From Raillietiella orientalis (taxonomy: Eukaryota), in the NCBI GenBank assembly GCA_036172245.1, contig JAYWIR010000084.1:62001-126000 (forward strand): a stretch of 64,000 bases of DNA, read 5' to 3'. This document shows positions 10,800 to 64,000 of this stretch, one piece after another. The position numbers were made by a program, and so were the translations under genes. Below the pieces are notes generated by a model. It saw only the letters and a program-made list of their open reading frames with translations, was not told the origin of the DNA and did no database searches. The first letter of the stretch is position 1. Every line of letters starts with the position of its first letter.

Positions 10800-11864
10800 C
10801 GCCGCAGAGCTGTCTGCCCTCTGGGCAAGGAACGACAGTTGTCTACTGGCTGAATGGGAGTTCTCCTGCACAATTGCAGGAGAGTCTAAGCTCTCCTGCG
10901 ATTGTGTAGGAGGACAAAGCTCCTTGGCGGCTGGGAGACAAAGGAGCTGGTGCAAGCCGCCACCACGGAATCTGGCTAAGGGCCTGCTTCGGTGGAGCGA
11001 ACAATTAAGTGTGCCTTCCGAAAAGATAGTGATTCCACCCGTTTCTTTAGACAGCTCCGTGTTCCCCTTAAAGTGGAAACAAGATGTGCTGCTCTTTTTA
11101 CACTAGGAATTCCACTGTAATCGGCAACGAAGCATCGTTTCCGGGGGAGCTGCTTCGCCAAACTGTTTGAGGTGCGGAGAGATCGAGTCTTTTCCGTACC
11201 TGTTGCTGGACTGCGTTGACCTTTGTGAACTGTGGCGAAGCTGATTTCAGACATCATGCCGCAGGTAGGCACTGCCATTGATGTGCTGCGACGCTTCTTT
11301 AGAGCAAAAGGACTTTCGGTAGGCGTGATTGTCGCAACCATGTGTTGCATTCGCGCCATCGTCAAGGCGCGCTACGCCCTGCAATTATGAGCGCAGCGAA
11401 AGGAGGCTCACCTACTTGCAGCTAAATCCTTGGAAAAGGCTGCAAGTTGGCCTTACTTTCGTGACGAGGTGAAGGAGGACATCGCCAGCGTGCATCGTCG
11501 GTTTACAGACGTTTGAGAACGGCGTAATCCGGTGTCCCCTGAGACCTCTCGTCCACCCATATCCCTTCTCCGTTCGTTCTATCAAATTCCCGGTACTATT
11601 ACTTTCATTCCGGTGCCTTCCAGAGCGATCCCAAAGACCCTCGTTTCGGCACCCTCCATTCATAACTGTTATTTTGTTTTTGTTTGTTTGTTTCCATCAA
11701 CCTCACACACCGTTCCAAAGTTGTTATCACGGCCTGCGTGCCAGGTAAATTGTCTTCATCCTTGTCGAATCGTCGGTTGGGAGCCTGGTTCCCAAGTGGT
11801 TTATTTTATATAATTGTTCTTTGTTCATATTATATGAAATGAACGACCTGGCTTGAGAGGATGA
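10800..11864 (+). mobile_element. L1/Tx1-like element, 3' part of ORF2 plus 3' UTR
   Basis: GLLRWSEQLSVP...FPLKWKQDVLLFLH, CxxC zinc finger, T-rich UTR and a degenerate terminal motif AATGAA-CGACCTGG..AGGATGA. Confidence 0.85.
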
Positions 11865-13000
11865 GAAATCTCCCGCGAATGTTATGCGGAGATCTGATGG
11901 ATCTCCTGCAGCAGCACGAGGTCAAAGGCTTGCAAGGTGGCAGCTATGTTTCTTCTCCTGCCGTCATCGCAAAGCTTGTTGACGTTCCAAATGGTGATGC
12001 GTATTTGACGGCAGGTGGCGAGTCCCGGCATTACTGCTGGCCTTTGAGGGTGGTTGCGGAACGGCGGCGATCTCGGCGGCGGCTTTCGCAAAGTCCTCGT
12101 CATTGCGGCTTTCCTTCTCGCCGCAGCCCTCGGACGCTGTTTGCACAGCGACGGGGCTGTCGGCGTTGTTGCACGCGGCAACGGCCTGTTCGCACGGCAC
12201 TTCGGCGTCTGTAAGACGCTCCAGTGCGATTGTGCATTTTTTCAATCCCTGCTTTTTCGCGAATTTCGCGGATTTTGCAGGGACTTTACTGGTCTTTTTC
12301 TCTTTCTCCTTCTTGTGGCTGACCTTTAACCAGTCAGGCTGTTCTCCTATCTCGGTTGCCTGCGTTTCTGTAGACGGGGTGGTCGGCGTGGCCTTCTTGG
12401 CTGGCTCCGGGTCAAGCGTTTTATCGGACTTCGACCTGGGCTCACCAGGCTTCTTGTTGCTCGCATTCGTGCCGCTCGCTGCAGCAGCCGGCGCGCACGA
12501 GATTTTTGGGGGCACACTTCCTCCGTGTGCCACGTTGCCTCGCACTTGAAGCAGGTGATGTTGGGGCAGCGTTTCTTCACGTGCCCCGTACCATCACAAA
12601 ACGCACAGTATTTGGGTTTCCCCAGATACCAGATGTCGACAGAATCTCCGCCGACTACTAGATTATGGGGAACCCCAATGTCCTTATTCACTGTTATACG
12701 TGCCGCGGCAAGTCCGCTCAGAAGTCCCTCATAAGTACAGAATCTGTTGGGTTTGGCCCAAAGCGCGTGCAGGGTGACAATTGTGCTAAGCTCAGCCCTG
12801 ACGACGCCCGGAGGCATTCGCAGGGTGATTACTCTAAGGTGGACAGCTATCGAGTTGTTCATCGGCACGGGGAAGAGCTGGAGGCCCTCGATCCTAACGG
12901 GGGTTTGCAGCAGTCTTTGCGCCAACCCTGCTTCTTTACAAGTCAGCTCGACATGCTGCCCCCCGCTGCAAATGGAGAGTCCTAACAGATCCTCCTTGTT
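11865..13000 (-). mobile_element. L1/Tx1-like element, ORF1 (two CCHC knuckles) and start of the APE endonuclease
   Basis: CAFCDGTGHVKKRC and CFKCEATWHTEEVC, then IWNVNKL...FDLVLLQEIH. Confidence 0.9.
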
Positions 13001-13004
13001 TCCT

Positions 13005-13836
13005 CCACCCTCCAGATCGCAGGCAGGTAGGAGTTGATGAGCAACTGGACTACAGGAGAACTGGCGGACACCACGACCCCGACCGACCAGCCGAGAGGAC
13101 TGATGAGATAGGACGAGCTGCTCGCCATCCCGATAGATGAGCTGAAGTCGCCCCCAGTATTGAAGGAATCCAGGATCCTGCCCCTTAAGTGGCAAGAATC
13201 GGCCTTGCTTCTAGGGTTTACCCTGCAACGCACGCCGATTCCACTGAACAAGGAAGCAGGGAATCCTGAGTGAGCCAGATGTGGGGAGCGAAAATCGCTC
13301 CCCCACCTCATCTTTGATAGTGCTGCCCTCCGACCCCTTTGGGAACGGTTTGAGACGACCCTCGGGCTCCTGATGGGCAGAGCGTCCAGAGACGTTTTCC
13401 GGCTCCTCTTCGTGCGCGACGCCCTGCAGCCAACCGCAGCCCTCGCAACACTGCTGCGTCCGAGGCATCGTGGCGGCCTGGAGGGATACCGACAACGAAG
13501 AAGTGGATGCACAAGACATGGACATCATCCAACGTACGGTTTGCTTCATGCGGAGAGCTGCTGGATGGCTTCAACTGGGACCAATGCGGATGGACCTCGA
13601 GGGCTTTCTCGACGGATGGGCCCTCCTCCCAGTGAACTGTGATACCTTCCCTTCCCTCCAAAGTCTTTTTGTTTCTTTATTTTTTATTTTTGTTTTCTCC
13701 CCCATCCCCCTCCACTGCTAAGGGGAGATCACCGGCAGGTCCGGTGTTGTGTGGCCGTTAGTGTGGCCTTGTACCACGTTGTCTGTTGAACTTCGATTGA
13801 AGAGCTTTTAATAAACGTCGCGGCGTTACCGGGTGG
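13005..13836 (+). mobile_element. L1/Tx1-like element, 3' fragment with terminal motif
   Basis: ILPLKWQESALL region; AATAAA at 13810-13815 followed by CGCGG..CCGGGTG. Confidence 0.85.
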
Positions 13837-13849
13837 CATATCCAAATCT

Positions 13850-15200
13850 TGAAGACAGTAGACGAGTTATTCCTGCGCTTTCGAGGGAGTCGTGAGGAAG
13901 GGCTTTTATTAGTGTTTGTGTGGATTTGTTACATCGTTGATGTCCGATGGCATCGTTGCCAGAGGATACCACGGTGGAGATAGGTGTGGAGGAGGCTTGG
14001 GTCCTCCCACAAACTGCAGAGTTGGGGGCATCCGCCCCAGGATCGTCCTTGTCGCTGGCGAGGACATGCAGCGCCATGGTGGCGGTACCTAGTGCAGAAG
14101 CCTTGGCGGAGCAAGCGGCATACAGAGCCTCAGGTTACAAACCATCATTGGTTTATAAGGTAGGTTCCTGGTTTGATGGGTGCACGGCACCCGCCTTCTC
14201 GAAGGCGATGCAGAACTCTGATATTAAAGAGCAACAACTTGACGGCCTCTCGGTTCTCAGCGGGGGTCAGCGCGTCGAGGTAGTGTGCAAAGACATCACC
14301 TTGGCTCAGCGCCTGATCACTACCCCCTGAACGTTGATGGCCGCAAGATCTTCCCGGTGACAATGGACCGCTCCGTGGTGGTCGATCTCACTGGTATCAC
14401 TAACCTCATGACCCGGTCTGCGGTTAGTACAGAACTGAAAAAATTCGGTAATGTGCACGCGTTGTAGCACAAACCAAAGATATTTAATGGCTATTATAGC
14501 CTTTTCGGGGAACAGGCCGCTGCGCGTGTCACGGTGAAACAGGATTGTAAGCTCCCCCACAAACTAGAAATCTGTAATGAAGAAGTAGACCTCTGATATG
14601 TGGGGAAACCACGATTTTGTGGCTACTGTAAGTAGCCACAAAAGAGGGTCACATTCGTAAGAGGTGCTTCAACATTGTGTGCCACTTATGCGGTAAAAAG
14701 GGCCACGTGCGCCGCGTATGCCCTAAACGCCCAACTCTGGTTCCCCCTGCCGCAATGGAAGCGCAGGGAAAACGGGGCAGAATGGTCGAAAGACCGAAAC
14801 GGGATACTGGCCGGCAGCAGCCTCCAGCCCCCCTTCCTCCCACACAAGCGTCGGAGAAAAAAACTCACAATGACGCGGGAGTAGAGGAGGGTTGGCAGCT
14901 GGTTAAGGCAATGAAAGAGAAAAAGAAGTCAACTAAAGCACCTGGTGTTCCTCCTCCTAGCGTCCCGCCCCAATAGGCGGTGGACGCTGCTACGCCACTT
15001 TTAAAGGAATAACACCTGAGCTTGCCTGTCGCCGTCGGATCCGCGTGGCCTGTTAGAATATAAACGGGCTGCGTGACGACGGAAACCGACGAGATACAGC
15101 CGACATCCTGTATGAGTTCAACCTGGTCCTGCTGCAGGAGATCCACGTGATCACCGCGGCAGACGTCCAGGAGATCGAGACGATAGCAGGGGGTCGGTTG
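13850..15200 (+). mobile_element. L1/Tx1-like element, 5' UTR, disrupted ORF1 and start of endonuclease
   Basis: GYKPSLVYKVG, SGGQRVEVVCK, CHLCGKKGHVRRVC, then ..NINGLRDDG..LVLLQEIH. Interrupted at about 15200. Confidence 0.9.
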
Positions 15201-17110
15201 TTTGTCACCCAGGTGCTCCGGAGCGTTTATTAATAAACTATCCAGGAACAAAGTTTCCGGATAAAGGAGAAAGAAAAAAACGAAAGGGGAGGAGAAACGA
15301 AGGGGAGGAGCCCGACACGCAGGTCGGTATACCGAAAGTCCGGAACAAGAGAAAGGTGACCACAAATACACATATAGAAAATAAAAAGAAAAATATGGGG
15401 TGGGTAAGGGACAGGGGTCTCTTTGGTGCGGCCGTTCCAGTCTTTCAGAACCGGCGATGGATGCCGGCGATCTCTCTCCTCACTATCTCTGGAAGATGGG
15501 CCCACTCGGCAGCCGACGGCATGTTTGCGCTGGCTAATCCGGTAGACTAACGAAGGATGGCCAGCTTCTCCAACTCTCGGTGGGCCTTATCGATGGCGTT
15601 GGTGCAACACACGGCTGCAACGACAGCACCTAAAGACAGGCAGCCTGGCGTGAAGAAGCGGCGCATCAAGTCTCTCGTGGTCTTCTCCTGGTACAGGAGA
15701 GCTGAGGCCAGCCTTCGCCACAGTCCTAGGAGGGCACCGCAGTCCAAGAGCAGGTGCAAGAGCGTTTCCACTTCCCCGCACCGATTACAATTTGGGTAGA
15801 CAACTCCCCCGGAAACACGGTTCGTCCGCTGGTTGGAGTGAAAACCCCAATGCACCAGCATGATGACGTCCTGTTTCCAAGAAAGGGGGAACACAGAAGT
15901 GTTCAAACAGGAGGGAGGGACCTTAAGTTCTTCGAGGGGCACACTCAAGTGTTTACTCCCCCGAAAGAGTCCCTTCGGGATGTAGCGAACCGTGGCGGCG
16001 TCTGCCAGCTTGCAAAGTCCTGCAGCCGCCTATGGGTCGTGTTGATCCTGTGATGGTGTAGGCGACCTCTCACGTCGCCGGTTGGCAGCTGTCATCTCTT
16101 GCTCTGAGGGCTGACAGCGCGTCGGCGAGGGGCGTGACGGCCAGGCGAGTCCACTTCTCCTGGCTGTTACAGACCTCATCCACCGTGCAGTACGGGGAGA
16201 GGTGAGCGCAACGGAGTTCCAGAAGGGATACATACTCCAGCTTTGCCCAGGCATGAAACGGCTCCTGCCGCCAGCATTCAAAGTTCGTTAAGAGGCTGGA
16301 GATCCATTCCTGGGCTGCCAGGAGACGGTAGAGAGGTTTCAAGGGGAAATCAAAGCTTCTCTTGGCGTGCTCCGTATGCGGCCGGAGCGACAGAAGTCCA
16401 CTGCTGCCGGTACAACTCCCAAGAGCAGGAGCGCGGGAGCACACCGCGGAGTGTACCAAAGTTGGCGCACAGGGCCAACATCCGGAGTTGCACCTGCCGC
16501 TGGATTCTCTTCAGCGTCAGGATGTCTAAGCTGGCATTCCGACGCGGAGCCGCCAAGTCTTTGAGGCGGATCCTGGATCTCGCAGGCCACACAGAGCGCT
16601 GCTCAACAGGCTGTGCGCCTGGAGCTTGGCCGAGTAGGGGGGAGGAAAAACAAAAAGCAGGGGCGCAAGAGGGGGCAATGAAGGCGTTTGATATCGCAAC
16701 CCGCTCATACAGGAGGAACCTGCCATGGTGGAACGGGTTCAGAGAACAAGTAGCCTCACGAAGGCAGTCCAACCACACTTCCACTGGGCTAATGTTCCCT
16801 AGCAAAACGCCCAGATATTAGATGGACAAAGCGGCCGGGTTTCACAGGCGGATCCAGTCGGACTGCCCCTACCACGCTTCAAAAATAGGAACGGCCATGC
16901 TCTTGTTCCGGTTTACGCTCATGCCCGCTCCAAGGCGAATGAGCTCGAAGAAATCCTCGAGATTGTACGCCGGGGTGGTCATGGGTAAAAGAAGAAGCAG
17001 ATCTTCAGCATAGGCCGCTACGGATGGCGTTCCTGTACAAGAGCTTGGCAGGCTGGCCAGTGTCAACCTGTACGCCTTCAGCACCAACTCAAAGATTCTG
17101 AAGAGAAACA
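15201..17110 (-). mobile_element. L1/Tx1-like element, RT C-terminal half to 3' end
   Basis: AAYAEDLLL (YADD variant), CNRCGEVETLLHLLLDC, terminal motif at 15202-15231. Confidence 0.9.
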
Positions 17111-17112
17111 GA

Positions 17113-18290
17113 CGACGGTCGGGTAGGCCAGCAGATTCTCAGGTGGTCCGACTCGATCAATCTGATCGTGGAAAACGTGCACGGCCCCAGCGGAAAACAG
17201 GGTAAAGGCGACCGTACCAGGTAGCTATAAACCCTGAAGTGCGACTGGCTGACGGAAACGAATGTGCTAAAGGCTCATCTGATAGCGGGAGATTTCAATC
17301 TCGGCCTGCTAACAGGTGAGCATGAAACACAAAAGAACGCAATGAACGAGTTGTGCGCCACCATGCGTGCGCGCAACTTCTTCGCGGGTGAGAGGGGAAT
17401 GGTCCGCAGCATCGACCACGTGTTTCTCCACGCCGAGCTGTGTTCGCGTGTCGGTGAACGGGGAAAGCTTGCGTCGACACTGTCGGACCATTCCCGGTTA
17501 ATCTTCGAGATGCGAGCGCGACAAGGGACCGCCATCCAGGACGTGGCGTCTCCCTGGGGACTGGACGCGACTCTCAGGTGCAAAGGTACACCTTCGCGAA
17601 TACCTGAGAGGCGTCACGCTCCGGAATCTCCAGGACTGGGACCTTTTTAAGGAATCGGTCCGCGAGTTCTGCGAGCAGTTCCCCCTGGATCGCCTGTCCC
17701 TTGGATTTGGCGAGGGTCCTCGCAACCATCGAGCCTATTTACAGGCCCGTCGTTACGAGAGAACCCCTAATGTCCGTCGCTTGGCCGAGTACCGCGCTGG
17801 GGCCGAACGCCAAGCCTGGCAATCCGGGTCGGCCAGCTTGCTGGACGACCAGGGCCGGGAATGTTCGTCCCCGGCGTCGGTATGGCATCTCGTGCGGAGA
17901 TTTTATTCATCCCTCTACGCCAGGACGCCTCCGGACCAAGATGCCTCTCGGCGCTTGCTCCCGGATGGTGCCCCGGCAATAGGGGAAGAGGGATCGGTAA
18001 GCCTCGACGAGCCTTTCACTACTGGCGGAATTTTCGCCGGTATCAAAAGGCTCAAGAGGCGTAAGGCGTCAGGGGAGGACGGCTTGCCAGCGGAGTTCTT
18101 TCAGTGCTTCGCGGAAGAGCTTGCCCCCCTGCTGCTCGTGTTGACAAGGCTGATCCGAGACGAAGGCGATGTTCTAGCCACGTTTCGGTCAGCCAGAGTG
18201 AGGCTCCTCCCGAAAGGGGGAGACCTCAGGAAATTGCACAACTGGCGTCCGATCACGATCGTGAACACGGACGCCGAGTTGCTAGCAGGG
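17113..18290 (+). mobile_element. L1/Tx1-like ORF2 fragment (endonuclease end and RT N-terminus)
   Basis: IAGDFN, IDHVF, LSDH, KASGEDGLPAEFFQ, LLPKGGDLRKLHNWRPITIVNTD. Confidence 0.9.
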
Positions 18291-18299
18291 CTGTGGCAT

Positions 18300-19380
18300 C
18301 TCCGGAGAAGGATCTCCCACGCGCGGACGCCGGCTCACAGGCGACGCCTATGGTGGAAGGTGAGCAGGGTGACGAAGCCAGCCCTGCATGCGCCGAACCC
18401 GAGAAGCCCGCCCCTATGGAGGAGGACGATCAGGTAGGCGCGACCACACCCACGGACGACCCGCCTGAAGCAACGACACCAATAAAGGAGGTGGATCAGG
18501 TGCTCGACGCACCGACACGTGCGCCTCCTAGCGTCCCGCCCCACCAGGTGGCGGACGCCGCACTGCTACTTCCAAAGGATTAACACCTGGGCTCGCCTGT
18601 CGCCGTAGGATACGCGTGGCCTGTTGGAATGTCAACGGGCTGCGCGCCGACGGCAACAGACGAGATACGGACGACATCCTGCGTGAGTTCGACCTGGCGA
18701 TGCTGCAGGAGATCCAGGTGATCACAACAGGGAACGCCCAGGAGATCGAGACGATAGCAGGGGGTACGTTGTACTGGCCCTGCGGCGCCCGCAACACCCG
18801 TGGGGTCGCGTTTTTCGTGAAGGCAGCCATCGACGCTGCCCTGATGGACGTGCGGTTTGATGACGAAGGTCGGGTCGGCCAGCTGACTCTAAGGTGGTCC
18901 GACTCGATCGACTTAATCGTCACAAACGTGTATGCCCCCAGCAACCAACAGGGTTACCGCGACCGTACCAGGCTGCTGGAGACCCTGAAGCGAGACTGGC
19001 TGGCGGAAGCGAATGTGCTAAAGGCTCATCTGATAGCGGGAGATTTCAATCTCGGCCTGCTAACAGGTGAGCATGAAACACAAAAGAACGCAATGAACGA
19101 GTTGTGCGCCACCATGCGTGCGCGCAACTTCTTCGCGGGTGAGAGGGGAATGGTCCGCAGCATCGACCACGTGTTTCTCCACGCCGAGCTGTGTTCGCGT
19201 GTCGGTGAACGGGGAAAGCTTGCGTCGACACTGTCGGACCATTCCCGGCTAATCTTCGAGATGCGGCCTCGCGACAAGGGACCGCCATCCTGGGAGTGGC
19301 ATCTGCCGGGGGACTGGAGGCGACTCTCAGGTGCGAAGGAACACCTTCGCGAATTCCTAAGAGGCGTCACGCCCCAGAGC
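18300..19380 (+). mobile_element. L1/Tx1-like fragment: ORF1 end plus complete APE endonuclease domain
   Basis: ORF 18616-19443 contains WNVNG, LQE, GVAF, NVYAP, GDFN, IDH and SDH. Confidence 0.92.
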
Positions 19381-19386
19381 TTGAAT

Positions 19387-20800
19387 TCAAACCCGGTTCG
19401 CCGGGACGTTTATTTTTTCAAAAAAAAATTATACAAGCTTTGACTGGACTAGTAGTCCAGCCACGCCCTGGAAACAATGAGCCTGCCAAGATACCGGTGC
19501 GCAGACCGTCGCGGTCGACATCGGCAGCAGAGGGGAGGGGGAATCAAAGAAAAAGAAAACAAAAAATAAACAGAAACCGGGTCGGAAGCGAGAAGGGATC
19601 ACTGTCTGCTGGGAGGGTCCGTCATCCTCTGGAGGATGCCGGCAAGCTGTTGCTGGATGGTGGATTTCAGATAAGGCCATCGCGTCGCCATCCTCAGGAA
19701 ACGGGCGGCGTACACGGTGGCATCCCTGTCGCTGGACCCTCCCGTCGCTTTGTTCCAGGCAACGACGATCCCGCGTAGGCAGCACAGGGCTGCAAGCGAG
19801 GCCGCCGGAGGCAGGGCGTCACAAACGAAGAGGGGGCGCAAAACGTCTCTGGAATTGCCTCTGGGAATCCCCAGGGCCGCGGCAAAGCGTTCCCACAAGG
19901 GACGGAGGGCAACACAATCCACTAACAGGTGGGGGAGGTATTCCCTCTCCCCACACCTGACACAATTGAAGTTGACACCCCCCCGCGTCCAGTGGTGTCG
20001 GCGGACGTTGCAGGGAAGACGTCAATGCAACACCAGCTGTGCCGACTGTTGCCACTTGATGGGGAGGGTGCGCGAGTCCATGAGACCGGGGGCCACTCGA
20101 GATGTTCCTCCGATACATCCAGTAGCTCTCTTCATCGCAACAGTTCGTGTGGGTTGGTCCTCGGGGTCGCAGCGTTGGTCAGCTGACCCGTTCTCCAATC
20201 TCCGATCTTCTTTTCCCTGCAAGCGATGTTGAAGGTAACCTCCCATTGTGCCGCGACGTCGCTGCCCACATGTTCCCTTAGGGTAGGCATTACCGCAGCA
20301 AGTGAGGTTCTTTGTGCCCACGCTCTCCTTCGGGGATCCTTGACGATTTCTCGGAGCGTGCGGTGGGCGCGCGACACGACCAGAGCTATTCGCTCGAGTT
20401 GCGGAATCTGCTCCTGAGTCATCGCTTACGTTCAAACGGTTTCCTGCAGCCAGGCAGGACCGTTCGCGGGGCGTACGAAGATGTATCCTGCGTTGTTTTT
20501 CACGAGTTTGTCCGCCCTCCAAGGCTGAATTCCGCAGTGGCAGATCGGCTTCGGAGTACAAAGTAGGACGAGAGTTCCGCATGGCCGGTGACCTGCTCGA
20601 CGAGGAGTCGTGCTGGGAAGCACCAGGGGGTGCACCAGTTCTTTGCCATGAAGGCAACACTCCGGGACTGGAGCTGAAGCTCCAGGCGCTCCAGCGTCAG
20701 GAGGCCCAGACCACCATCCCGACATGGAGCGCACAAGTCCGCGAGATTGACTCTGGGATAACGGCACCCTTCCCCTGCAGTGGCAGGAGACGGCGTTGCT
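19387..20800 (-). mobile_element. L1/Tx1-like element, 3' part of ORF2 and terminal motif
   Basis: DLCAPCRDGGLGLLTLERLE, LPIKWQQSAQLVLH, zinc finger; motif at 19391-19414. Confidence 0.88.
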
Positions 20801-20819
20801 TCTGCTCCATTGGGGACTG

Positions 20820-21522
20820 TTAAGCAGAGCGCGCTTGTCTCACTGGACACCGGGGAATGTGGATGCTAATTGCACAGACTGTGGGGAAAGAGAAACCTTT
20901 CCTCACTTAATCATTGAGTGCGTTGCCCTTCGCGATATGTGAAACCGACTCTCGTCCATATTGAACATTCCGCGGGGCGACCCGAAGAACATTTTTCGAC
21001 TCCTGTTGCGGGACGCCTTGCCAGCTTCCAAATGTGTAGCAGTGCTCTGTTGCATACGCAAAATACTGGACAAGTGGACCGCGTCAAAGAGAGGACATGC
21101 CAGTCGGAATGCCATCTACTGGGCAACCATCTCATCGGAGAAGGCCTGCCGTTGGCGCCGACTCGGAAAACATTTACAGGCACTCGTCCGCATCGTGACC
21201 GGATGCAGGGGCCTCCTCAAGGCGTACCGTGATTCCTTCCCTTCCCTCCCCCTCACGAAGAACATTACCCCCCAGGCGTTTTCTTTTTTTTTGGTTTATT
21301 TCTGTTTTTCCCCGCCCCTTTGCCAGTGTTGAGGACCTTATCCGCCTTCAGGTCGGTAAGGACAAGTGCCTCAAGACATTCGGGCCATATGTCCTGACTG
21401 AAAAACAAGGACAACAACAACAACAAAAAAAACAAAAACAAATCATGACTTTATTATGAATTTTTTTTTGTGTATTTTGAAAAATTTTAATGATAAAAGT
21501 TCCGGGTTACCCGGGTGAAAAA
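20820..21522 (+). mobile_element. L1/Tx1-like element, zinc finger, 3' UTR and terminal motif
   Basis: CTDCGERETFPHLIIEC; GATAAA-GTTCCGGGTTACCCGGGTGAAAAA at 21492-21522. Confidence 0.85.
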
Positions 21523-21659
21523 CCATGTGGAATCGTGGAACAGGTTCGCCTCCATCTTCATTCTCCCGGGAACAGCATATGTCTGTTCCGGGCTGATGAA
21601 GATGTTGGCAACCCGTCCCAGCCGCTCTGCCCACAGCTTGGCTAGCAACTTGGCGAAAC

Positions 21660-25620: not shown

Positions 25621-25671
25621 CCTGTTGCAGCACTGCAAACTCCTCTGCAACGCCTGCCGACATCACTAAAC

Positions 25672-48900: not shown

Positions 48901-48997
48901 TGCCCGCAGTGACGGCAGACGTGTTTTTTGGCTGCTCCTGCGTTTTAGCGCGAGTTTGTAGGTTCTGTGGTGTTTGGGCGGTGTTTTGAAGGCAGAA

Positions 48998-53719: not shown

Positions 53720-54970
53720 TCCGTCGCTGAACTCGATCGCGACGGAAACGGCAAAGGGAGGCTCGTCGCCCCGGGGGCAGTCTCGGGAACGGCTATGCGG
53801 TCCAGTGCCACTGTACATTCCCGCATTGTCTTGGAACGCGGCCCAGGTTTCTTCGCCTTGCCGGCAGTCTTTTTGACCGCTTCCGCGGTTTCAGCGGGGG
53901 GCACCTTTTTTTTTTTCCTGGCCTTAACCAGCTGCCAGCCGTCCTATTCTCCCGCGTTTTAGGAAGGTTTTTCTTCCGACGCCTGTGTGGGAGGAAAGGG
54001 GGCTTGCGGCTACTGCCGGCAAGTATCTCTTTTTGGTCTTTCGAACAATTTTCCTCGTTTTTCCTGCGCTTTCTTTGCGGCAGGCGGCACCGGAGTGGGA
54101 TGTTCAGGGCACACACGGCGCACGTGGCCCTTCTCCCCGCATATGTGGCACACAATGTTCGGGCACCGCTTTCGCAAGTGTCCTACTGCATTGCAGGAGC
54201 CACAAAAGCGGGGTTTCCCCACGTACCAGAGGTCTACGATTTCGTCATTGACCTTTAGTTTGTGGGGAAGCCCAATCTCCTTCACCGTCACGCGCGCGGC
54301 GGCATGCCCTCCGAAAAGGCTATCGTAGCCATCGAAGATTGTAACCTTTGGCCATAGCGCGTGAACATCGCCATATTTTCTTAACTGATCACCAACCGCA
54401 GACCGCGTCATGCGGCTAGTGATCCGTGTCAGATGGACCACTACAAAGCGGTCCATCGTGACGGGTGGGATCTTGCGTCCGTCCACATTCAGCGAAGTAG
54501 TAATCAAGCTTAGTTCCAAGGTGATGTCCTTGCAGACAACCTCGACGCGCTGACCCCCGCTGAGCACAGATAGACCGTCAAGATCCTTCTCTAACACGTT
54601 GTCGTTCTGCAGCGCCTTCCAAGAAGCGCGTCCAGTTCGCCCGTCAATGAGATTGCCTACCTAGTACATGAGGTTGGGCTTGTATCCACCTGCCCGGTAG
54701 GCCGCCATCTCGGCCATGGTTTCCGCGCTCGGCGCGGCCATCATGGCGCCCCAGCTCCTCGCTTTGGGCGGCGAGGGTGATTCCGGGGCCGACGCTCCTG
54801 ATTCTGTAGGCTGTGGGGGTGGGCGAACCTCGTCTACACCTACCTCCATCGTGGTGTCCTCAGGCATCGCTGACATCGGACACCAACGATGTTGCACACA
54901 AAAACACACAGAGAAAAAACCACTTCGTGTCGACTCGCTCTGGAGCTCAGGAAAACACGTCCACTCGATA
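53720..54970 (-). mobile_element. L1/Tx1-like 5' UTR and ORF1 (family of 13850-15200)
   Basis: GGACGTGTTTT at 54952-54962; CGSCNAVGHLRKRC and CHICGEKGHVRRVC. Confidence 0.9.
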
Positions 54971-54982
54971 AGGAATTCGGCG

Positions 54983-57900
54983 TTGTCACCCGGGTACGCC
55001 CGGGACGTTTATTTGTAAACTCTACATGCGTGGTACGAGGCCCCACAACGGCCATAAACACGCAACCTGTCGGGATACCGGGACGCAGCCCGCCGTGGTA
55101 CTCCCCGACAGCGAAGAAGGATGGGGATAAGACAAAAAGAAAAAGAAAAAGAAACAAACAAAAAGAAGTTGAAGGGCGAAGAAGGGATCACTGGTTACTG
55201 TGGAGAGGGCCCATCCGTAGAACGAAGCCCTCGAGGTCAGTCTGTATATTTCTTAGTAGGGGCCATCCAACAGCTCTTCGCAAGAAGCGTTGGGCATACG
55301 GGATCACATCCCTCGCCTGTGGACCCACTCCTTCGTTGTTGGCGTCGCTCCATGTCGCCACGATGCCACGCACGCACCACAAGGCTGCAATGGCTGCGGC
55401 TGGCTGCAGTGCGTCCTTCACGAAGAGGGGCCGAAAAATGTCTCTGAAGGTGCTGCCGGTAGGGAGCCCGAGGGTCGTCCAGAACCGTTTCCAAAGGGGT
55501 CGGAGGGCAGCACAATCCACAATAAGTTGGGAAAGCGACTTCCGCTCCCCGTACCTGGCACACGCAGGATCCACAGCTCCGCTCGTCCAGTGGAAGCGGC
55601 GCGCGTTGCAGTGTAGACCCCAGTGCAACAAAAGCAACGCCGACTCTTGCCACTTGAGGGGCAGGATCCTGGATTCTTTCATCACCGGGGGCCACTTCAG
55701 CTCATCCCTGGGGATGGCGAGCAGCTCGCCCCCTTTTTAATAATGCTCGCGGCTGGACGCTCGGGCTCGTGGCGTCAGCCAGTTCGACTGTTGTCCAGCC
55801 GCTGATCAACTTCTCGCGTCCATCGTTGCAGCAAGAGACTTGCCACCTTGGCGTCCGGCTGCTGTGAAGTGCCCTCTTCAGGAAGGGCAGCGCCGTAGCT
55901 AGACAGGTCGTCTCTGCCCACGTGCATCTTGCTGGACTCTCCAGGAGATTCCGCAGCGTGCAGCGGGCGAAAGGGCTGCATCGGAGACGATTCCACGTCT
56001 CGTGGCTTGTCTGGTTAACCACTGCCCACGTTCCAATATTTTCCTCCAGCCAGGCGGGGGAGTTGGCGGGGCAGCAAACCATCCAGCTGTTCTCCTTGGC
56101 CAATGTTGCCATGCGCCCGAGCAGTAGGCCGCATCTTCGCATCTTCCGGCCACGGCTGAGAAGAAAAGACGCGAGTCCATCGCACCGGGACACACGGCTG
56201 ACCAGGAGGCGGGCCGGAGTGCACCAAGGGGTGCACCACATCTTCGCTGCGATGGCAAGGGTTCGCCACCGCAGCTGCTTCTCCAGTCGCTCCAGAGTCA
56301 GGAGGCCAAGACCTGCGTCCTGACGCGGAGCGCACAAGTCCTTCAGTGAGACTCGGGGCCTCCCATTTCCCCAAAGGGCGATACGGAGGAGGGCCTTCGT
56401 CCTTTTCTTGGATTCCACGGTGGGAGGGCAAACAAAAAGCAAATGGTGGAGGATAGTGCCGCGAAGGCGTTCTAAACCGCGGCCCGTTCTGGCAAGTTAA
56501 ACTTGCCTTCCAGGAACGGGCCGATCGCCGTCTCGACTTTTTGGAGGCAGCTGGACCACGCTTCCGCAGGGGAGTAGTCCCCCAACGGCACACCAAGGCA
56601 CTTGAAGCACCTCGCCGTGGGGATCCCCAGACGGACCCAGTCCTGCTGCCCTGCCCACGCCGCACCTATTGGCACAACCGACGACTTCGCCCTGTTAACC
56701 TGCAGGCCGGTCCCGCGGCTGAGCAGATCGAAGAAGTCTCCGACCGCCTTTGCCGGGGTGGACATTGGCAACAAAAGCAGAAGATCGTCGGCGTACGCTG
56801 CTACGGCGAGAGTGCCGGGGCACGAGCTCGGCAATGGGACCAAAGTCACCCTGTACGCTCTCAGCACCAACTCAAAGTAGGTGCTGAAGAGCAGGGGGCT
56901 GAGGCTATCTCCATGCCTTATGCCCAGCCGCACCGGCACGCCATAAACCTTATGACCACTGAAAGAGACGGTAATCATCGCATTCCGCCAGCAAGAGCGC
57001 AGGTAGGAAATCAGGGAGGGTGGGAAGCCCATGTGACCCAGGAGCTCCAAGAGAAGATCCTGGTCTACACAGTAGAACGCCTAGTGCTCTCCAGGGTGGA
57101 CGTATTTTCTCGGTGCTCCTCGTGCCAGGAAGTCTTCCCCAGTGCAAGCGTCGTGTGGTTCGGTGGACGATCAGGCAGCGATGCATGACGCGACCACCAG
57201 GAATGGCCAGGGGGCAGCGTCAACGCCGCCCCCAAAGGCGATGGAGAGCCAGGGGGCGGCGGCAACGTCGCCCCCAGAGGCGATGGAGGTGGGGGCATCC
57301 GCCCCCACAGAATCGGTCCCCGCTGCAGCGCGGGCGTGGAGCGCCGTTGTGTCGGCGGCATCGCCTGCAGCCGCGGCGGAATTGTCGGCCTATGTAGAGG
57401 AGGGGTACAACCCCTCATTGTTCTACAAGGTAGGCAATTTGTATTCTTTGGAGAGCGCGCGCGCCTTCTTGAAGGGCATACGCGCTCTCGATGTGAAAGA
57501 GGAGCTCAGCGCTATGACCATCCGCAGCGGGGTTTAGTACGTTGAGGTCCTCTGCAAACATGCAGAGCTGGCCCAACGACTGCTTAGAACCCCCGTTGTG
57601 ATGGAGACACGCAGGCTCCTCCCCACTACGGCGGATCGCATCATGGTGGTCCACCTGTTAGGTGTCACCGCGCGAATGCGCAAAGAACAGGGTCGCGCCG
57701 CTTTGGAACAGGTCGGAACGGTCCACGCGCAGTGGACGGAAGTAAGTCCTTCCGAGGACTACACGGGGCTGCAGCACGGCCTCACTGCTGCGCGCGTGAC
57801 CGTTCGGGAAGGCTGCACTTTTCCCCACAAACTGGTGGTCGAAGGCGAAACCGTCGACCTCTGGTATGTGGGGAAGCCGAAATACTGTGGCTTCTGCAAT

Positions 57901-60900
57901 ACGTCGGACCACCGCAAAAAGAGGTGTCCCAATGTGCAGTGCCAAGTATGCGGCACAATGGGCCACACGAGGGAGGTGTGCCCCAAAGCAGCAGCGCGGG
58001 TGGTTTCCAAGAGAAAACCTTAAAAACGCGCCCGGCTTCTGCAGAAAAGGCTGGCGGCGAAAGCTCTCGCGAAGGCTGTGCCACCCGCGCCCAAGACCCA
58101 GGCCGCACCCGATACCCCGGCGACCAACGCCGAAAAAGTTGAGGGAGCCGGCCAGGAGACTGGGTGGCAAGTGGCAACGGCCAAAAAATCAAAGAAGGAG
58201 AGGAGGATGGAAAAGAAAATCGCCTACCAACAGAAGAAGAAAGAGCAGGGTAGCGCGATAATTAAAGACTGCAGCGTCGTTGTCGAACGCGTAATCGATG
58301 TTGCCGAACGCTGCCGGAAAGAACTAGCCGCTACCGACGACCTCTTCTCTGTTGACACAGTCAACAGCGAGGGGAGAGAGCCGGCGGCGGCGTCCGTCAT
58401 CGACACCACCATCGATGAAGTAGCCTTCGCGCGAGCCGCAGAGAAGCTGGCAGCTTCGTTGCAGCCAGAACCCTCCAAGGCTGGCAAGAAGGCCGTAAGG
58501 CGTCCGGCCTCCCCTCAGGAGTCCCCCACTTCCGACCCCAAGGTAGAGGCCGGAAGCGCAGCCTCCGTTTGCACGGCACCGCGCAAGAAGGCTGGACGTA
58601 AGTCCACAAAGCCAAGGAAGCTCGTCTCCCCCGTCGTTATCACCCGGGTACGCCCGGGGTGTTTATTAATGAACTTTACATGCGTGGTACAAGGTCCCAC
58701 CACGGCCGTAAACACAGGACCTGTCGGGACACCGGGACGCAGCCCTGCATGGCACTCCCCGACAGCGAAGAAGGATGGGGATAAGACAAAAAGAAAAAGA
58801 AAAAGAAACAAACAAAAAGAAGTTGGAGGGCAGGGAAGGGATCACTGTTCGCTGTGGAGAGGGACCATCCGTCGAACGAAGCCCTCGAGGTCAGTCTGCA
58901 TATTCCCCAGTTGGGGCCATCCGGCAGCTCTTCGCAAGAAGCGTTGGGCATACGGGATGACATCCCTCGCCTGTGGACCCACTCCTTCGTTGTTGGCGTC
59001 GCTTCATGCCGTCACGATGCCACGGACGCAGCACAAGGCTGCGATGGCTGCGGCTGGCTGCAGTGCGTCCTTCACGAAGAGGGCCCGAAAGACGTCTCTG
59101 GGGGTGCTGCCTGTAGGGAGCCCGAGGGAAGTCCCGAACCGTTCCCAAAGGGATCGGAGGGCAGCACAATCCACAATAAGGTGGGGGAGTGACTCCCGCT
59201 CCCCACACCAGGCACACGCAGGAACCACAGCTCCCCTCGTCCAGTGGAAGCGGCGCGCGTTGCAGAGTAGACCCCAGTGCAACAAAAGCAACGCCGACTC
59301 TTGCCACTTAAGGGGCAGGATCCTGGATTCCTTCATCACAGACGGCCACTTCAGCTCATCCCTGGGGATGGCGAGCAGCTCGCCCCATCTTAATAATCCT
59401 CGCGGCTCGACGCTCGGGGTCGTGGCATCAGCCAGTTCTCCTGTTGTCCAGCCGCTGATCAACTTCTCGCGTCCCTCGATGCAGCAGGAGACTTGCCACC
59501 TTGGCGTCCGGCTGCTGTGAAGTGCCCTCCTCAGGAAGGGCAGCGCCGTAGCTAGGCAGGTCGTCTCTGCCCACGTGCATCTTGCTGGACTCTCCAGGAG
59601 ATTCCGCAGCGTGCAGCGGGCGTAGGGGCTGCATCGGAGACGATTCCACGTCTCGTGGCTTGTCTGGTTAACCACTTCTCACGTTCCAATATTGTCCTCC
59701 AGCCAGGCGGGGGAGTTGGCGGGGCAGCAAACCATCCAGCTGTTCTCCTTGGCCAATGTTGCCATGCGCCCGAGCAGTAGGCCGCATCTTCGCATCTTCC
59801 GGCCACGGCTGAGAAGAAAAGACGCGAGTCCATCGCACCAGGACACACGGCTGGCCAGGAGGCGGGCTGGAGTGCACCAAGGGGTGCACCACATCTTCGC
59901 TGCGATGGCGAGGGTTCGCCACCGCAGCTGCTTCTCACGCGCTCCAGCGTCAGGAGGCCAAGACCGCCGTCCCGCGCGGAGCGCACAAGTCCTTCAGAGG
60001 GACTCGGGGCCTCCCCTTGCCCCAAAGGGCGATACGGAGGAGGTCCTTTGTCCTCTTCTTTGTTTCCACGGTGGGGGGGCAAACAAAAAGCAAGGGGCAG
60101 AGGATGGGGGCCGCGAAAGCGTTCCAAACCGCGGCCCGTTCCTGCAAGTGGAACTTGCCTTCCAGGAACGGGCCGATCGCCGTCTCGACTTTTTGAAGGC
60201 AGCTGGACCACGCTTCCGCAGAGGAGTGTTCCCCCAACGGCACACCAAGGTACTTGAAGCACCTCGCCGTGGGGATCCCCAGACGGAACCAGTCCTGCTG
60301 CCCTGCCCACGCGGCACCTATTGGCACAACCGACGACTTCGCCCTGTTAACCTGCAGTCCGGTCCTGCGGCTGAGCAGATCGAAGAAGTCTCCAACCGCG
60401 TTTGCCGGGGTGGACATTGGCAACAAGAGCAGAAGATCGTCGGCGTACGCTGCTACGGCGGGCGTGCCGGGGCACAGGCTCGGCAATGGGGCCAAAGTCA
60501 CCCTTCACGCTCTCAGCACCAACTCAAAGTAGGTGCTGAAGAGCAGGGGGCTGAGGCTATCTCCATGCCTTATGCCCAGCCGCACCGGCACGCCATACAC
60601 CTTGTGACCACTGAAAGAGACGGTAATCATCGCATTCCGCCAGCAAGAGCGCAGGTAGGAAATCAGGGAGGGTGGGAAGCCCATGTGACCCAGGAGCTCC
60701 AAGAGAAGATCCTGGTCTACACAGTCGAACGCCTAGTGCGCTCCAGGGTGGACGTATTTTCTCGGTGCTCCTCGTGCCATGAAGTCTTCCCCAGTGCAAG
60801 CGTCGTGTGGTTCGGTGGTCGATCAGGCAGCGATGCCTGACGCGACCACCAGGAATGGCCAGGGGGCAGCGTCAACGCCGCCCCCAAAGGCGATGGAGAG

Positions 60901-63900
60901 CCAGGGGGCGGCGGCAACGTCGCCCCCAGAGGCGATGGAGGTGGGGGCATCCGCCCCCACAGAATCGGTCCCCGCTGCAGCGCGGGCGTGGAGCGCCGTT
61001 GTGTCGGCGCCATCGCCTGCAGCCGCGGCGGAATTGTCGGCCTATGTAGAGGAGGGGTACAACCCCTCATTGTTCTACAAGGTAGGCAATTTATATTCTT
61101 TAGAGAGCGCGCGCGCCTTCTCGAAGGGCATGCGCGCTCTCGATGTGAAAGAGGAGGAGCTCAGCGCTATGACCATCCGCAGCGGGGGTCAGTACGTTGA
61201 GGTCATCTGCAAACATGCAGAGCTGGCCCAACGACTGCTTAAAACCCCCGTTGTGATGGCGACACGCAGGCTCCTCCCCACTACGGCGGATCGCAGCATG
61301 GTGGTCCACCTGTTAGGCGTCACCGCGCGAATGCGCAAAGAACAGGTTCGCGCCGCTTTGGAACAGTTCGGAACGGTCCACGCGCAGTGGACGAAAGTAA
61401 GTCCTTTCGAGGACTACACGGGGCTGCAACACGGCCTCACTGCTGCGCGCGTGACCGTTCGGGAGGGCTGCACTCTTCCCCACAAACTGGTGGTCGAAGG
61501 CGAAACCGTCGACCTCTGGTATGTGGGGAAGCCGAAATACTGTGGCTTCTGCAATACGTCGGACCACCGCAAAAAGAGGTGTCCCAATGTGCAGTGCCAA
61601 GTATGCGGCACAATGGGCCACACGAGGGAGGTGTGCCCAAAAGCAGCAGCGCGGGTGGTTTCCAAGAGAAAACCTTAAAAACGCGCCCGGCTTCTGCAGA
61701 AAAGGCTGGCGGCGAAAGCTCTCGCGAAGGCTGTGCCACCCGCGCCCAAGACCCAGGCCGCACCCGAGACCCCGGCGACCAACGCCGAAAAAGTTGAGGG
61801 AGCCGGCCAGGAGACTGGGTGGCAAGTGGCAACGGCCAAAAAATCAAAGAAAGAGAGGAGGATGGAAAGGAAAATCGCCTACCAACAGAAGAAGAAAGAG
61901 CAGGGTAGCGCGATAATTAAAGACTGCAGCGTCGTTGTCAAACGCGTAATCGATGTTGCCGAACGCTGCCGGAAAGAACTAGCCGCTACCGACGACCTCT
62001 TCTCTGTTGACACAGTCAACAGCGAGGGGAGCGAGCCGGCGGCGGCGTCCGTCATCGACACCACCATCGATGAAGTAGCCTTCGCGCGAGCCGCAGAGAA
62101 GCTGGCAGCTTCGTTGCAGCCAGAACCCTCCAAGGCTGGCAAGAAGGCCGTAAGGCGTCCGGCCTCCCCTCAGGAGTCCCCCACTTCCGACCCCAAGGTG
62201 GAGGCCGGAAGCGCAGCCTCCGTTTGCACGGCACCGCGCAAGAAGGCTGGACGTAAGTCCACAAAGCCAAGGAAGCTCGTCTCCCCCGTCGTTATCACCC
62301 GGGTACGCCCGGGGTGTTTATTAATGAACTTTACATGCGTGGTACAAGGTCCCACCACGGCCGTAAACACAGGACCTGTCGGGACACCGGGACGCAGCCC
62401 TGCATGGCACTCCCCGACAGCGAAGAAGGATGGGGATAAGACAAAAAGAAAAAGAAAAAGAAACAAACAAAAAGAAGTTGGAGGGCAGGGAAGGGATCAC
62501 TGTTCGCTGTGGAGAGGGACCATCCGTCGAACGAAGCCCTCGAGGTCAGTCTGCATATTCCCCAGTTGGGGCCATCCGGCAGCTCTTCGCAAGAAGCGTT
62601 GGGCATACGGGATGACATCCCTCGCCTGTGGACCCACTCCTTCGTTGTTGGCGTCGCTCCATGCCGCCACGATGCCACGGACGCAGCACAAGGCTGCGAT
62701 GGCTGCGGCTGGCTGCAGTGCGTCCTTCACGAAGAGGGGCCGAAGAACGTCTCTGGGGGTGCTGCCCGTAGGGAGCCCGAGGGTCGTCCCGAACCGTTCC
62801 CAAAGGGGTCGGAGGGCAACACAATCCACAATAAGGTGGGGAAGCGACTCCCGCTCCCCGCACCTGGCACACGCAGGATCCACAGCTCCCCTCGTCCAGT
62901 GGAAGCGGCGCGCGTTGCAGGGTAGACCCCAGTGCAACAAAAGCAACGCCGACTCTTGCCACTTGAGGGGCAGGATCCTGGATTCTTTCATCACCGGGGG
63001 CCACTTCAGCTCATCCCTGGGGATGGCGAGCAGCTCGCCCCCTTTTTAATAATGCTCGCGGCTGGACGCTCGGGCTCGTGGCGTCAGCCAGTTCTCCTGT
63101 TGTCCAGCCGCTGATCAACTTCTCGCGTCCATCGTTGCAGCAAGAGACTTGCCACCTTGGCGTCCGGCTGCTGTGATGTGCCCTCTTCAGGAAGGGCAGC
63201 GCCGTAGCTAGACAGGTCGTCTCTGCCCACGTGCATCTTGCTGGACTCTCCAGGAGATTCCGCAGCGTGCAGCGGGCGTAGGGGCTGTATCGGAGACGAT
63301 TCCACGTCTCGTGGCTTGTCTGGTTAACCACTTCTCACGTTCCAATATTTTCCTCCAGCCAGGCGGGGGAGTTGGCGGGGCAGCAAACCATCCAGCTGTT
63401 CTCCTTGGCCAATGTTGCCATGCGCCCGAGCAGTAGGCCGCATCTTCGCATCTTCCGGCCACGGCTGAGAAGAAAAGACGCGAGTCCATCGCACCAGGAC
63501 ACACGGCTGGCCAGGAGGCGGGCTGGAGTGCACCAAGGGGTGCACCACATCTTCGCTGCGATGGCGAGGGTTCGCCACCGCAGCTGCTTCTCACGCGCTC
63601 CAGCGTCAGGAGGCCAAGACCGCCGTCCCGACGCGGAGCGCACAAGTCCTTCAGAGGCACTCGGGGCCTACCCTTGCCCCAAAGGGCGATACGGAGGAGG
63701 TCCTCTGTCCTCTTCTTTGTTTCCACGGTGGGGAGGCAAACAAAAAGCAAGGGGCAGAGGATGGGGGCCGCGAAAACGTTCCAAACCGCGGCCCATTCCT
63801 GCAAGTGGAACTTGCCTTCCAGGAACGGGCCCATCGCCGTCTCGTCTTTTTGAAGGCAGCTGGACCACGCTTCCGCAGGGGAGTATTCCCCCAACGGCAC

Positions 63901-64000
63901 ACCAAGGTACTTGAAGCACCTCGCCGTGGAAATCCCCAGACGGAACCAGTCCTGCTGCCCTGCCCACGCGGCACCTATTGGCACAACCGACGACTTCGCC
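54983..64000. repeat. Tandem array, about 2.5 units of 3654-3655 bp (minus-strand RT/3' half plus plus-strand 5'/ORF1 half)
   Basis: Units start at 54983, 58637 and 62292. The same chimeric junctions recur at 57082/60734 and 58636/62291. Confidence 0.93.
60833..61678 (+). CDS. ORF1 N-terminal part of a P-family element (RRM-like region plus two knuckles)
   Basis: MPDATTRNGQG..., GYNPSLFYKVG, CGFCNTSDHRKKRC, CQVCGTMGHTREVC. Continues in the -1 frame. Confidence 0.8.
   Translation: MPDATTRNGQGAASTPPPKAMESQGAAATSPPEAMEVGASAPTESVPAAARAWSAVVSAPSPAAAAELSAYVEEGYNPSLFYKVGNLYSLESARAFSKGMRALDVKEEELSAMTIRSGGQYVEVICKHAELAQRLLKTPVVMATRRLLPTTADRSMVVHLLGVTARMRKEQVRAALEQFGTVHAQWTKVSPFEDYTGLQHGLTAARVTVREGCTLPHKLVVEGETVDLWYVGKPKYCGFCNTSDHRKKRCPNVQCQVCGTMGHTREVCPKAAARVVSKRKP

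Follow-up and report, generated by a model that had tools for sequence, protein, structure and literature searches.

In the Tx1 group (L1 clade), R1, TRAS and SART, long interspersed nuclear elements (LINEs) use an apurinic/apyrimidinic (AP) endonuclease that picks a defined sequence within a repeated target, and insertion is precise and in one orientation. The known targets of site-specific LINEs are rRNA, snRNA and tRNA genes, microsatellites, telomeric repeats and a DNA transposon. Homing endonuclease genes and introns target conserved catalytic-site codons, which the host cannot change without losing function. The background that follows is given as it stands in the available portions of the cited sources. 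Sequence specificity has been reported for the R1 endonuclease (PMC1919474). Zepp of Coccomyxa forms clusters of nested copies, one per chromosome, with GC-content peaks of 61% against 53% for the genome (PMC3446292); it targets existing copies, and its clusters are thought to mark centromeres (PMC8226300, PMC3446292). ZeppL binds CENH3 in Chlamydomonas (10.1101/2025.03.28.645958). Grem-LINE1 of Mucoromycotina is present only in pericentric clusters of 15-75 kb and is silenced by RNA interference (10.1101/706580, PMC7377519). Double transposon insertion into one preferred or duplicated site gives head-to-tail tandem dimers (PMC5932611). LINE-into-LINE clusters are known at algal and fungal centromeres, but those portions do not explain how, at the sequence level, the elements find one another. 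Here we describe an array of nested L1-like LINE copies in a stretch of 64,000 nucleotides of Raillietiella orientalis DNA (contig JAYWIR010000084.1, positions 62,001 to 126,000), hereafter the window.

The array, delimited by GC-content, Pfam matches and element maps, spans 10798-64000 and continues past the right end of the window. Its GC-content is 0.54-0.63 versus 0.39-0.48 in the left flank. The array is ~53 kb long and consists almost wholly of several diverged L1-like LINE families piled up by nesting. Self-comparison of the window gave 57-75% identity between families and pairs of 80-96% identity within them. Pfam detected Exo_endo_phos (PF03372, E = 2e-12 and 4.4e-11) and RVT_1 (PF00078, E = 8.9e-21 and 2.8e-15) on array open reading frames (ORFs), and the element maps place the endonuclease before the reverse transcriptase (RT) in ORF2 of a single element. 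Sub-threshold Pfam matches to zf-RVT (25.4 bits, cut-off 27.5) and zf-CCHC (18.3 bits, cut-off 20.8) were also obtained on array ORFs, and two CCHC motifs can be seen by eye in the ORF1 translation. No long terminal repeats (LTRs) were found, many copies are 5'-truncated, and target-site duplications of 12-13 bp surround both full-length copies. Judged by the ORF2 domains and these last features, the elements are AP-endonuclease, L1-like non-LTR retrotransposons.

Copies share the 5' motif GGACGTGTTTT and a common 3' module of AATAAA, a G+C hairpin of 5-6 bp (CCCGG..CCGGG) and TGAAA(A), ending in 2-4 terminal A. AATAAA lies ~25 nt upstream of the 3' terminus in 11 of 14 copies, with variant signals in the pieces A, H and N. 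The hairpin stem is nearly invariant, so that covariation is uninformative either way, and an Rfam search of the window returned no family match.

Insertion orientation and target word

Each 3' end was re-derived from the conserved terminal module. To orient the neighbouring DNA, two ORF2 pieces of the window served as tblastn queries, blastn was run against two full-length references inside it, O (27462-32911, minus strand) and WP (26289-27461 plus 32925-37272, plus strand, 5.5 kb), and about 35 pieces were placed on an element map using O/WP coordinates. An earlier note, made from the letters of the window alone, had described a strong antisense insertion bias, and this was borne out. Among 11 independent internal 3' ends, ten are antisense to the host (11864, 15201, 19387, 21522, 23108, 27462, 37273, 43585, 50016 and 58637) and a single one, at 23851, is sense. 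The binomial test of orientation that the note had called for, run on these 11 ends of the window, gave a two-sided p = 0.0117; the junction at 62291 is a copy of that at 58637 within a 3,654-bp repeat (95.8% identity) and was counted once.

The three head-to-tail stacks seen earlier (13836, 26277 and 54983) were found again, as was the absence of intact 3' ends from non-element DNA: 15 of 15 recognisable 3' ends have element DNA next to them or, across a spacer of 12-13 nt, the 5' end of an element. Events with a 5' junction only comprise four antisense cases (Q|R 41142, S22|T 43838, W1a|X1 57084, W1b|X2 60736) and three sense cases, namely 47645 and 48910, both noticed before, and a third added here at 47795. 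With 3'- and 5'-junction events pooled, 14 are antisense and 4 sense (p ~0.03, hand calculation). The antisense bias is strong, not absolute.

The explanation we favour, and hold to be reasonably probable, is that the endonuclease prefers a short word, whose best-defined occurrence is the K-A-F-D codons of RT motif A. The features on which this proposal draws are listed below.

25608-26276, plus strand: N, 3' part of the P family, 79.7% identical to the WP 3' part, at the left copy of the WP duplicated target
26277-26288, plus strand: left target-site duplication of WP, ATCAAACGCCTT, before the WP 5' end; reverse complement of K-A-F-D codons
26289-27461, plus strand: W, 5' part of WP (5' untranslated region (UTR) and ORF1)
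27449-27461, plus strand: left target-site duplication of O, GCAGCGTTGTAGT, of which the uninterrupted W1a and W1b have one copy
27462-32911, minus strand: O, full-length, ~5.45 kb, internally 300 bp shorter than R through a deletion, antisense inside WP
32912-32924, plus strand: right target-site duplication of O, GCACCGTTGTCGT, 13 bp, 11/13 identical to the left copy
32925-37272, plus strand: P, remainder of WP (ORF1 tail, ORF2 with a 742-aa open frame, 3' UTR)
37273-37284, plus strand: right target-site duplication of WP, ATCGAATGCTTT, after the WP 3' end; last four codons (K-A-F-D) of Q, reversed; 12 bp, 9/12 identical to the left copy, with three transitions
37273-41142, minus strand: Q, host, from a complete 5' end to RT motif A
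41143-43585, plus strand: R, 5'-truncated O-family copy, 95-96% identical to O, 3' end antisense to S22 at GCGTTCGAT
43586-43838, minus strand: S22, W-like 5' end that meets T precisely at the T K-A-F-D block
43839-45348, plus strand: T, host from motif A onward, with a degenerate K-A-F-D 12-mer at 43839-43850
54983-64000: periodic block of 3,654 bp per unit, made of X1 (54983-57071), W1a (57084-58636), X2 (58637-60723), W1b (60736-62291) and X3 (62292-64000)
57072-57083 and 60724-60735: K-A-F-D 12-mers in the periodic block

The word consists of the 12 bp coding for Lys-Ala-Phe-Asp (AAG GCR TTY GAY) in RT motif A, and the newcomer strand reads the reverse complement, ATCGAAYGCCTT. Four junctions fall on these same 12 bp of a 5.5-kb element: the P 3' end on Q (37273) and the 5' ends at W1a/X1, W1b/X2 and S22/T. 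A fifth copy of the 12-mer adjoins the N 3' end (26277). By hand estimate, the chance that three further matches coincide with those 12 bp in an element of 5.5 kb is ~1e-8. The four junctions and the re-used fifth copy thus show what a defined target produces, independent insertions at one nucleotide position and in one orientation, here antisense throughout. The 5' junctions of W1a, W1b and S22 share a layout of the 12-mer, 14 nt and GGACGTG. At the WP 3' end, the strand opposite to ATCGAATGCTTT reads ...L-D-F-H-K-A-F-D, and Q stops exactly at RT motif A.

These junctions do not look like descendants of one event. The ratio of nonsynonymous to synonymous substitution (Ka/Ks) between T and X1 is 0.48 in the true frame and 1.1-1.4 in wrong frames, and Ka/Ks of family pairs is 0.10-0.39; the hosts thus belong to different families that diverged under selection, and the junctions are read as separate insertions, not as copies of one old junction.

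The word also occurs at junctions in non-homologous places. R, of the O family, is inserted after GCGTTCGAT in a 5' region, and K is inserted after GCGTTCGAcgt in an endonuclease. In the element D, interrupted by E, the second part D' resumes after ..TTTGAT, an equivalent endonuclease word. The spacer of the X1|S32 stack, GCCGAATTCCTT, resembles the 12-mer at 9/12 positions, and that of the C|D stack at ~8/12 (by hand).

According to the element maps, GCRTTYGA occurs 13 times in the array: 9-10 times on the host sense strand, where 4-5 are occupied, and three times antisense, with none occupied. In seven annotated elements, sense and antisense counts are 32 to 14 for TTCGA and 5 to 0 for GCRTTYGA. 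The sense-strand base composition of annotated elements is nearly symmetric overall, so the bias is not accounted for by a strand skew of a general kind. In the Z endonuclease, the GDFN motif contains the sense 5' junction at 47645, with the target-like CTTCAAACG on the host sense strand; even in this sense insertion, the word is on the sense strand, so orientation follows the word. Taken as a reading of sequence, this evidence points to recognition of the word by the endonuclease, not to strand displacement by transcription.

Two other readings were tried and rejected, both on the O duplication and alignment. The segment 32912-33300 and its homologues had been considered as an opposite-strand 5' UTR and proved to be a WP-type ORF1 tail; a 'microhomology deletion' origin of the W1|O-like joint was likewise discarded.

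A separate observation concerns O (29180-29260, minus strand) and R (41480-41560, plus strand), which are separate insertions with 95% identity and have a common in-frame TGA before motif A (..VDL*KEF..). The source copy therefore presumably had the stop already and was mobilised in trans or read through. In both copies K-E-F-D/H replaces K-A-F-D, and motif A of the source copy departs from the 12-bp word.

Proposed mechanism and competing explanations

Junction positions, duplications, orientations and the strand distribution of the word are read directly from the window, and the following scheme would connect them. Related L1-like LINE families would serve one another as landing sites, their AP-type endonuclease preferring the short word. 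The host sense strand would be nicked just past the Asp codon, and the freed 3'-OH would prime reverse transcription of the newcomer RNA. A cut of the opposite strand 12 bp away would then leave a full-length insertion flanked by a 12-13 bp duplication, with ATCGAAYGCCTT on the newcomer sense strand. The duplex AAGGCATTCGAT is the predicted substrate; the nick is expected to follow GAT on that strand, and the second cut to fall on the opposite strand at a distance of 12 nt. Being part of coding sequence, the word is almost confined to the element sense strand, and newcomers would therefore land antisense to their hosts. Since the insertion duplicates the word, a later copy could use the duplicate, giving a head-to-tail stack with a 12-nt spacer; the stack at 26277 would be explained in this way, by N, a truncated WP relative, against the left copy of the WP duplication. 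In 5'-truncated insertions there would be no duplication and instead a loss of ~0.1-1.2 kb of host. We infer that the endonuclease reads the word and makes the two cuts in this order, and that the remaining antisense junctions used looser versions of the word. The 5' junction of a truncated insertion clearly marks the original nick for E in D; for other insertions this is only suggestive. The insertion of E cost its host D 89 bp, as judged by alignment to the uninterrupted relative F, and D' resumes immediately after ..TTTGAT.

Several observations weigh against a target word as the whole explanation. Strict site-specificity would place nearly all copies at the target, and 7 of 14 distinct 3' flanks (A, E, G, H, M, V, X2) are unlike the word, six of these seven being antisense. 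Copies of X, V and M are each followed by CG and otherwise share little in the flank. A fixed-register information-content test of the 14 flanks was not significant, with 487 of 5,000 random sets reaching the observed value; the scoring of the flanks against the 12-mer set N and R one base off (6/12 and 5/12, compared with 11/12 and 10/12 by hand reading). The 12-mer consensus was derived from the junctions on which it was scored and is to that extent circular. GCRTTYGA occurs four times in the non-array flank without insertion, and perfect K-A-F-D blocks in P and V also carry none, so the word alone is insufficient. Many hosts lack their other half, which implies deletions or rearrangements beyond simple nesting. 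A metagenome scan for the 3' module returned 34 loci, of which 0/34 matched element proteins; these are chance matches, and no relatives were recovered. All the evidence comes from one 64-kb window. The specificity is therefore a preference, or a set of preferences differing between families, rather than strict, and transcription-coupled nicking or recombinational loss of sense insertions may contribute to the six or seven antisense junctions without the word.

The earlier note had suggested that the endonuclease nicks the non-template strand of the host, for example when it is displaced during transcription. The first part of this suggestion fits the geometry: the priming strand is the host sense strand at 10 of 10 antisense 3' junctions. 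The second part fares less well. Transcription-coupled targeting, in which an endonuclease of little sequence preference nicks the displaced sense strand of transcribed hosts (R-loops), would accommodate the six antisense junctions without a clear target word (A, E, G, H, V, X2). It does not predict the concentration of junctions on a single short word at set codons, including four or five matches on one 12-bp block, or duplications with a fixed length of 12-13 bp. Nor does it predict a sense insertion at a sense-strand word, such as the exception at 47645. Furthermore, 5' truncation has reduced many hosts to fragments that lack their own promoter. We regard this explanation as unlikely.

It is also improbable that elements insert in both orientations and that sense copies, which form direct repeats, later collapse by recombination. 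Losses of ~0.1-1.2 kb at junctions are common, and some same-strand joints without a 3' end could be remains of such events, namely Y|J|K with its internal deletions, D'|F and S32|S31|V. Nevertheless, most nestings join families 57-70% identical, too diverged for efficient homologous recombination, and the site hot spot is left unexplained.

The proposal, also raised in the earlier note, that antisense insertions were selected because the locus is a PIWI-interacting or small interfering RNA cluster is not supported. A small-RNA source locus would retain antisense copies whose read-through yields antisense or double-stranded RNA against the elements, and read-through of antisense nests could be expected to give double-stranded RNA. 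A partial analogy is offered by the pericentric Grem-LINE1 clusters of Mucor, which are silenced, in the available parts of the source, by Dicer-dependent small RNAs of both senses (10.1101/706580, PMC7377519). However, the bias in the array is relative to the host element and not to the locus, where element sense covers 24,091 bp on the plus strand and 27,273 bp on the minus strand; a one-strand cluster would be expected to hold mostly one orientation, and in a dual-strand cluster orientation relative to the host brings no advantage. We consider such selection very unlikely.

That there is no real bias, only small numbers (n = 11) and a few ancestral junctions spread by segmental duplication, is equally hard to credit, since, although one junction is present three times in the 3.65-kb repeat and two composite junctions recur at ~70% identity, p = 0.012 even with duplicates counted once, and the recurring composites have Ka/Ks ~0.5 in the true frame versus 0.9-1.6 in wrong frames and so appear to be separate insertions.

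The periodic block, remaining pieces and left flank

Self-comparison revealed a 3,654-bp period over 54978-64000 with 95.8% identity. Each unit combines X (minus strand, from its 3' end to the K-A-F-D block) with W1 (plus strand, from a complete 5' end to WP coordinate 1525), and in each unit the complete 5' end of W1 lies at the 12-mer. From the outer to the inner unit, unique substitutions number 94, 31 and 14 (1,715 shared columns), and units 2 and 3 differ in branch length (p = 0.016). In the true frame, Ka/Ks is 0.48 for X1 vs X2 and 0.53 for X2 vs X3, while wrong frames give 1.1-1.2; for O and R, a recent pair, the value is 0.7-0.9 whatever the frame. These values hint that the units are successive insertions, of W into X and of X into W, rather than crossover copies.

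A tentative extension, which we hold to be possible but somewhat doubtful, is reciprocal parasitism: W-type elements would home into X-type K-A-F-D codons and X-type elements into a fixed spot in the W-type ORF1 tail, and this, not unequal crossing-over, would have built the 3,654-bp repeat with the youngest unit innermost. Against it, there is little in common between the two kinds of X flank, CGACGGGGGAG and CGCCGAATTCC, the counts are low, and the nest would have its mirror half outside the window. If true, reciprocal nesting would give transposons a new way of producing higher-order repeat arrays like those of centromeres, and the endonucleases would have evolved to home into sequence that a rival RT cannot alter.

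Short tandem repeats (24 bp, 42 bp) lie just past the ORF1 start of W- and Y-type elements at 21823-21954, 57206-57288 and 60858-60940, and are related (GGCAACGCCGCCCCC..).

The remaining pieces of the array are as follows.

10798-11863, plus strand: A, 5'-truncated, with a degenerate 3' end adjoining B antisense; its 5' side adjoins non-LINE DNA
11864-13006, minus strand: B, ORF1 to endonuclease N-terminus (WP ~416-1899)
13007-13835, plus strand: C, X-like 3' part, followed by a 13-16-nt spacer and then D, head-to-tail; Ka/Ks of C vs X1 is 0.49
13836-18338, plus strand: D (13836-15200) and D' (17111-18338), the two parts of a single element that is complete at its 5' end and interrupted by E
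15201-17110, minus strand: E, 5'-truncated newcomer, antisense inside D
18531-19386, plus strand: F, endonuclease part, interrupted by the G 3' end
19387-20754, minus strand: G, 3' part, 3' end at 19387, antisense to F
20755-21521, plus strand: H, 3' part, 3' end at 21521, antisense to I
21522-21655, minus strand: I, 134-bp RT fragment (WP 3183-3312, 88.7% identity to WP), between the H 3' end and the Y 5' end
21656-23107, plus strand: Y-J-K, complete 5' end and two internal deletions; 3' end at 23107, antisense to L at GCGTTCGAcgt
23108-23850, minus strand: L, ORF1 tail to endonuclease N-terminus (WP ~1260-2015)
23851-25607, minus strand: M, V-family 3' part, whose 3' end at 23851 adjoins same-strand L and is the single sense 3' junction
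45349-46742, no strand assigned: non-LINE insert, circovirus-like fragment of circular Rep-encoding single-stranded (CRESS) DNA type with a Rep N-terminus (Pfam Viral_Rep)
46743-47644, plus strand: Z, ORF1 tail to endonuclease, interrupted within the GDFN motif
47645-50015, plus strand: three same-strand 5' pieces, 47645-47790, U1 (47795-48905) and U2 (48910-50015), with sense 5' junctions
50016-53187, minus strand: V, 5'-truncated, 3' end at 50016, antisense to U2
53204-54982, minus strand: S31 (53204-53712, RT C-terminal fragment) and S32 (53905-54982, complete 5' end and ORF1)
54970-54982: 13-nt spacer CGCCGAATTCCTT beside S32

The whole array might be parsed recursively, with F..T enclosing G-I-L-S22, inside which lie H, Y-J-K, M..Q and R, followed by WP+N and then O. 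The geometry is consistent with this possibility, but several ~1-kb deletions are required, and the identities of M vs V (85%) and Q vs V (69%) speak against M and Q being one element.

An exhaustive search for relatives of the RT protein found 24,536, of which one only is close (68%, on a metagenome contig). The best named relatives are a chimeric turtle gene model (32-37%) and Closterium (28%). In the ESM Atlas, the nearest clusters are L1/Tx1-like and commonest in Mucoromycota or Chordata (Mucoromycota for the top cluster), and one is named 'Transposon TX1 149 kDa protein family', a lead only. One DNA sequencing run contained 7% of the sampled words of the window, and comparison of 10801-30800 with that run at 80% likeness matched 597 records, 422 of them less than 90% alike. 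Judged by these matches, a related organism carries the same families. Contigs of the related run are short, and their 'opposite strand' joints merely connect equivalent element coordinates and hold no junction information.

The insert at 45349-46742 looks like an endogenous circovirus-like remnant whose right side was cut by element Z. Its ORF at 46133-46591 (plus strand) matches Viral_Rep (PF02407, E = 4.8e-12) and contains the motifs CFTLCNFT and TPHLQGY; an arginine-rich ORF (45731-46000) lies on the opposite strand. Between the two ORFs, at ~46222-46252, there is a perfect 9-bp stem, GCAATCTGG..CCAGATTGC, whose loop holds what we take to be the reverse complement of a circovirus-type nonamer (xAGTATTAC). 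The insert also includes CCTAACCTAACCCC at 46001-46014, two TTAGG-type telomere-like units that are probably there by chance.

In the left flank, an isolated, decayed O-like fragment (4017-4652, minus strand; 62% identity, ORF2 C-terminus) lies outside the array without a recognisable 3' end, so residence within other elements is not a strict rule for the families. The segments 2085-2801 (plus strand) and 29-271 (minus strand) yielded an exon with a PI3K accessory domain (PF00613, E = 1e-7), which comes after two further open stretches only 15-50 bp apart and may be a processed pseudogene, and a weak Alg9-like match (E = 0.0019). The PI3K-like exon (75 aa), searched against longer proteins, had no match. 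The flank also contains other transposon remains. As far as these matches show, genic or pseudogenic DNA lies within 8 kb of the array edge. An inverted pair of ~225 bp and ~70% identity (677-908 and 10582-10811), one arm of which stops exactly at the left edge of the array, is probably another repeat family. Within the AT-richer flank, open stretches at 6595-7588 (plus strand) resemble by eye the N-terminal part of a different decayed RT; there was no Pfam match.

Comparison with known systems

Word searches of the open-access literature, which did not cover the original Zepp papers, found no LINE that targets RT codons or nests antisense. The nearest parallels can nevertheless be compared as far as the accessible parts of the sources describe them. 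Like Zepp and ZeppL, L1-clade elements of green algae, the array consists of copies inserted into their own kind and forms a GC-rich cluster; GC enrichment of clusters built by self-nesting, as reported for Zepp (PMC3446292), is found here too. Unlike Zepp arrays, which are mostly 3' ends (PMC8226300), the array has many complete 5' ends and an A tail of 2-4 bases. The accessible text, which again excludes the original Zepp papers, was found to describe for Zepp neither a 12-bp target within coding sequence, nor duplications of 12-13 bp, nor a rule of antisense insertion.

Compared by description, Grem-LINE1 (~5.9 kb) has the same domain order of zinc-knuckle ORF1, AP endonuclease, RVT and zf-RVT, and a 3' poly(A) signal. 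It differs in that the Mucor copies, in the portions available, are oriented away from the centromere core and not nested antisense. Because of the analogy with Zepp, ZeppL and Grem-LINE1 clusters, the centromeric or subtelomeric nature of the array put forward in the earlier note is plausible. In known tandem dimers, as those partial accounts present them, one preferred or duplicated site is re-used; here it is the 12-bp duplication itself that is used again, and elements of different families may be paired.

Unlike site-specific AP LINEs, the elements of this array have as target the coding sequence of their own RT catalytic motif, and their specificity looks relaxed. The logic is that of homing endonucleases. 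The mechanism is unrelated, DNA homing in one case and target-primed reverse transcription in the other, and the 'host gene' here is another mobile element.

If the endonuclease does read RT catalytic codons, the cluster would be self-perpetuating, every active copy necessarily bearing the target, and each insertion would kill a competitor in a fixed orientation. The resulting antisense nests would be inverted repeats that could feed RNA silencing, and re-use of the duplicated target, possibly together with reciprocal nesting, would link transposition directly to regular repeat arrays. Self-targeting LINE clusters are known from Zepp; the coding-motif target and the orientation rule appear to be new.

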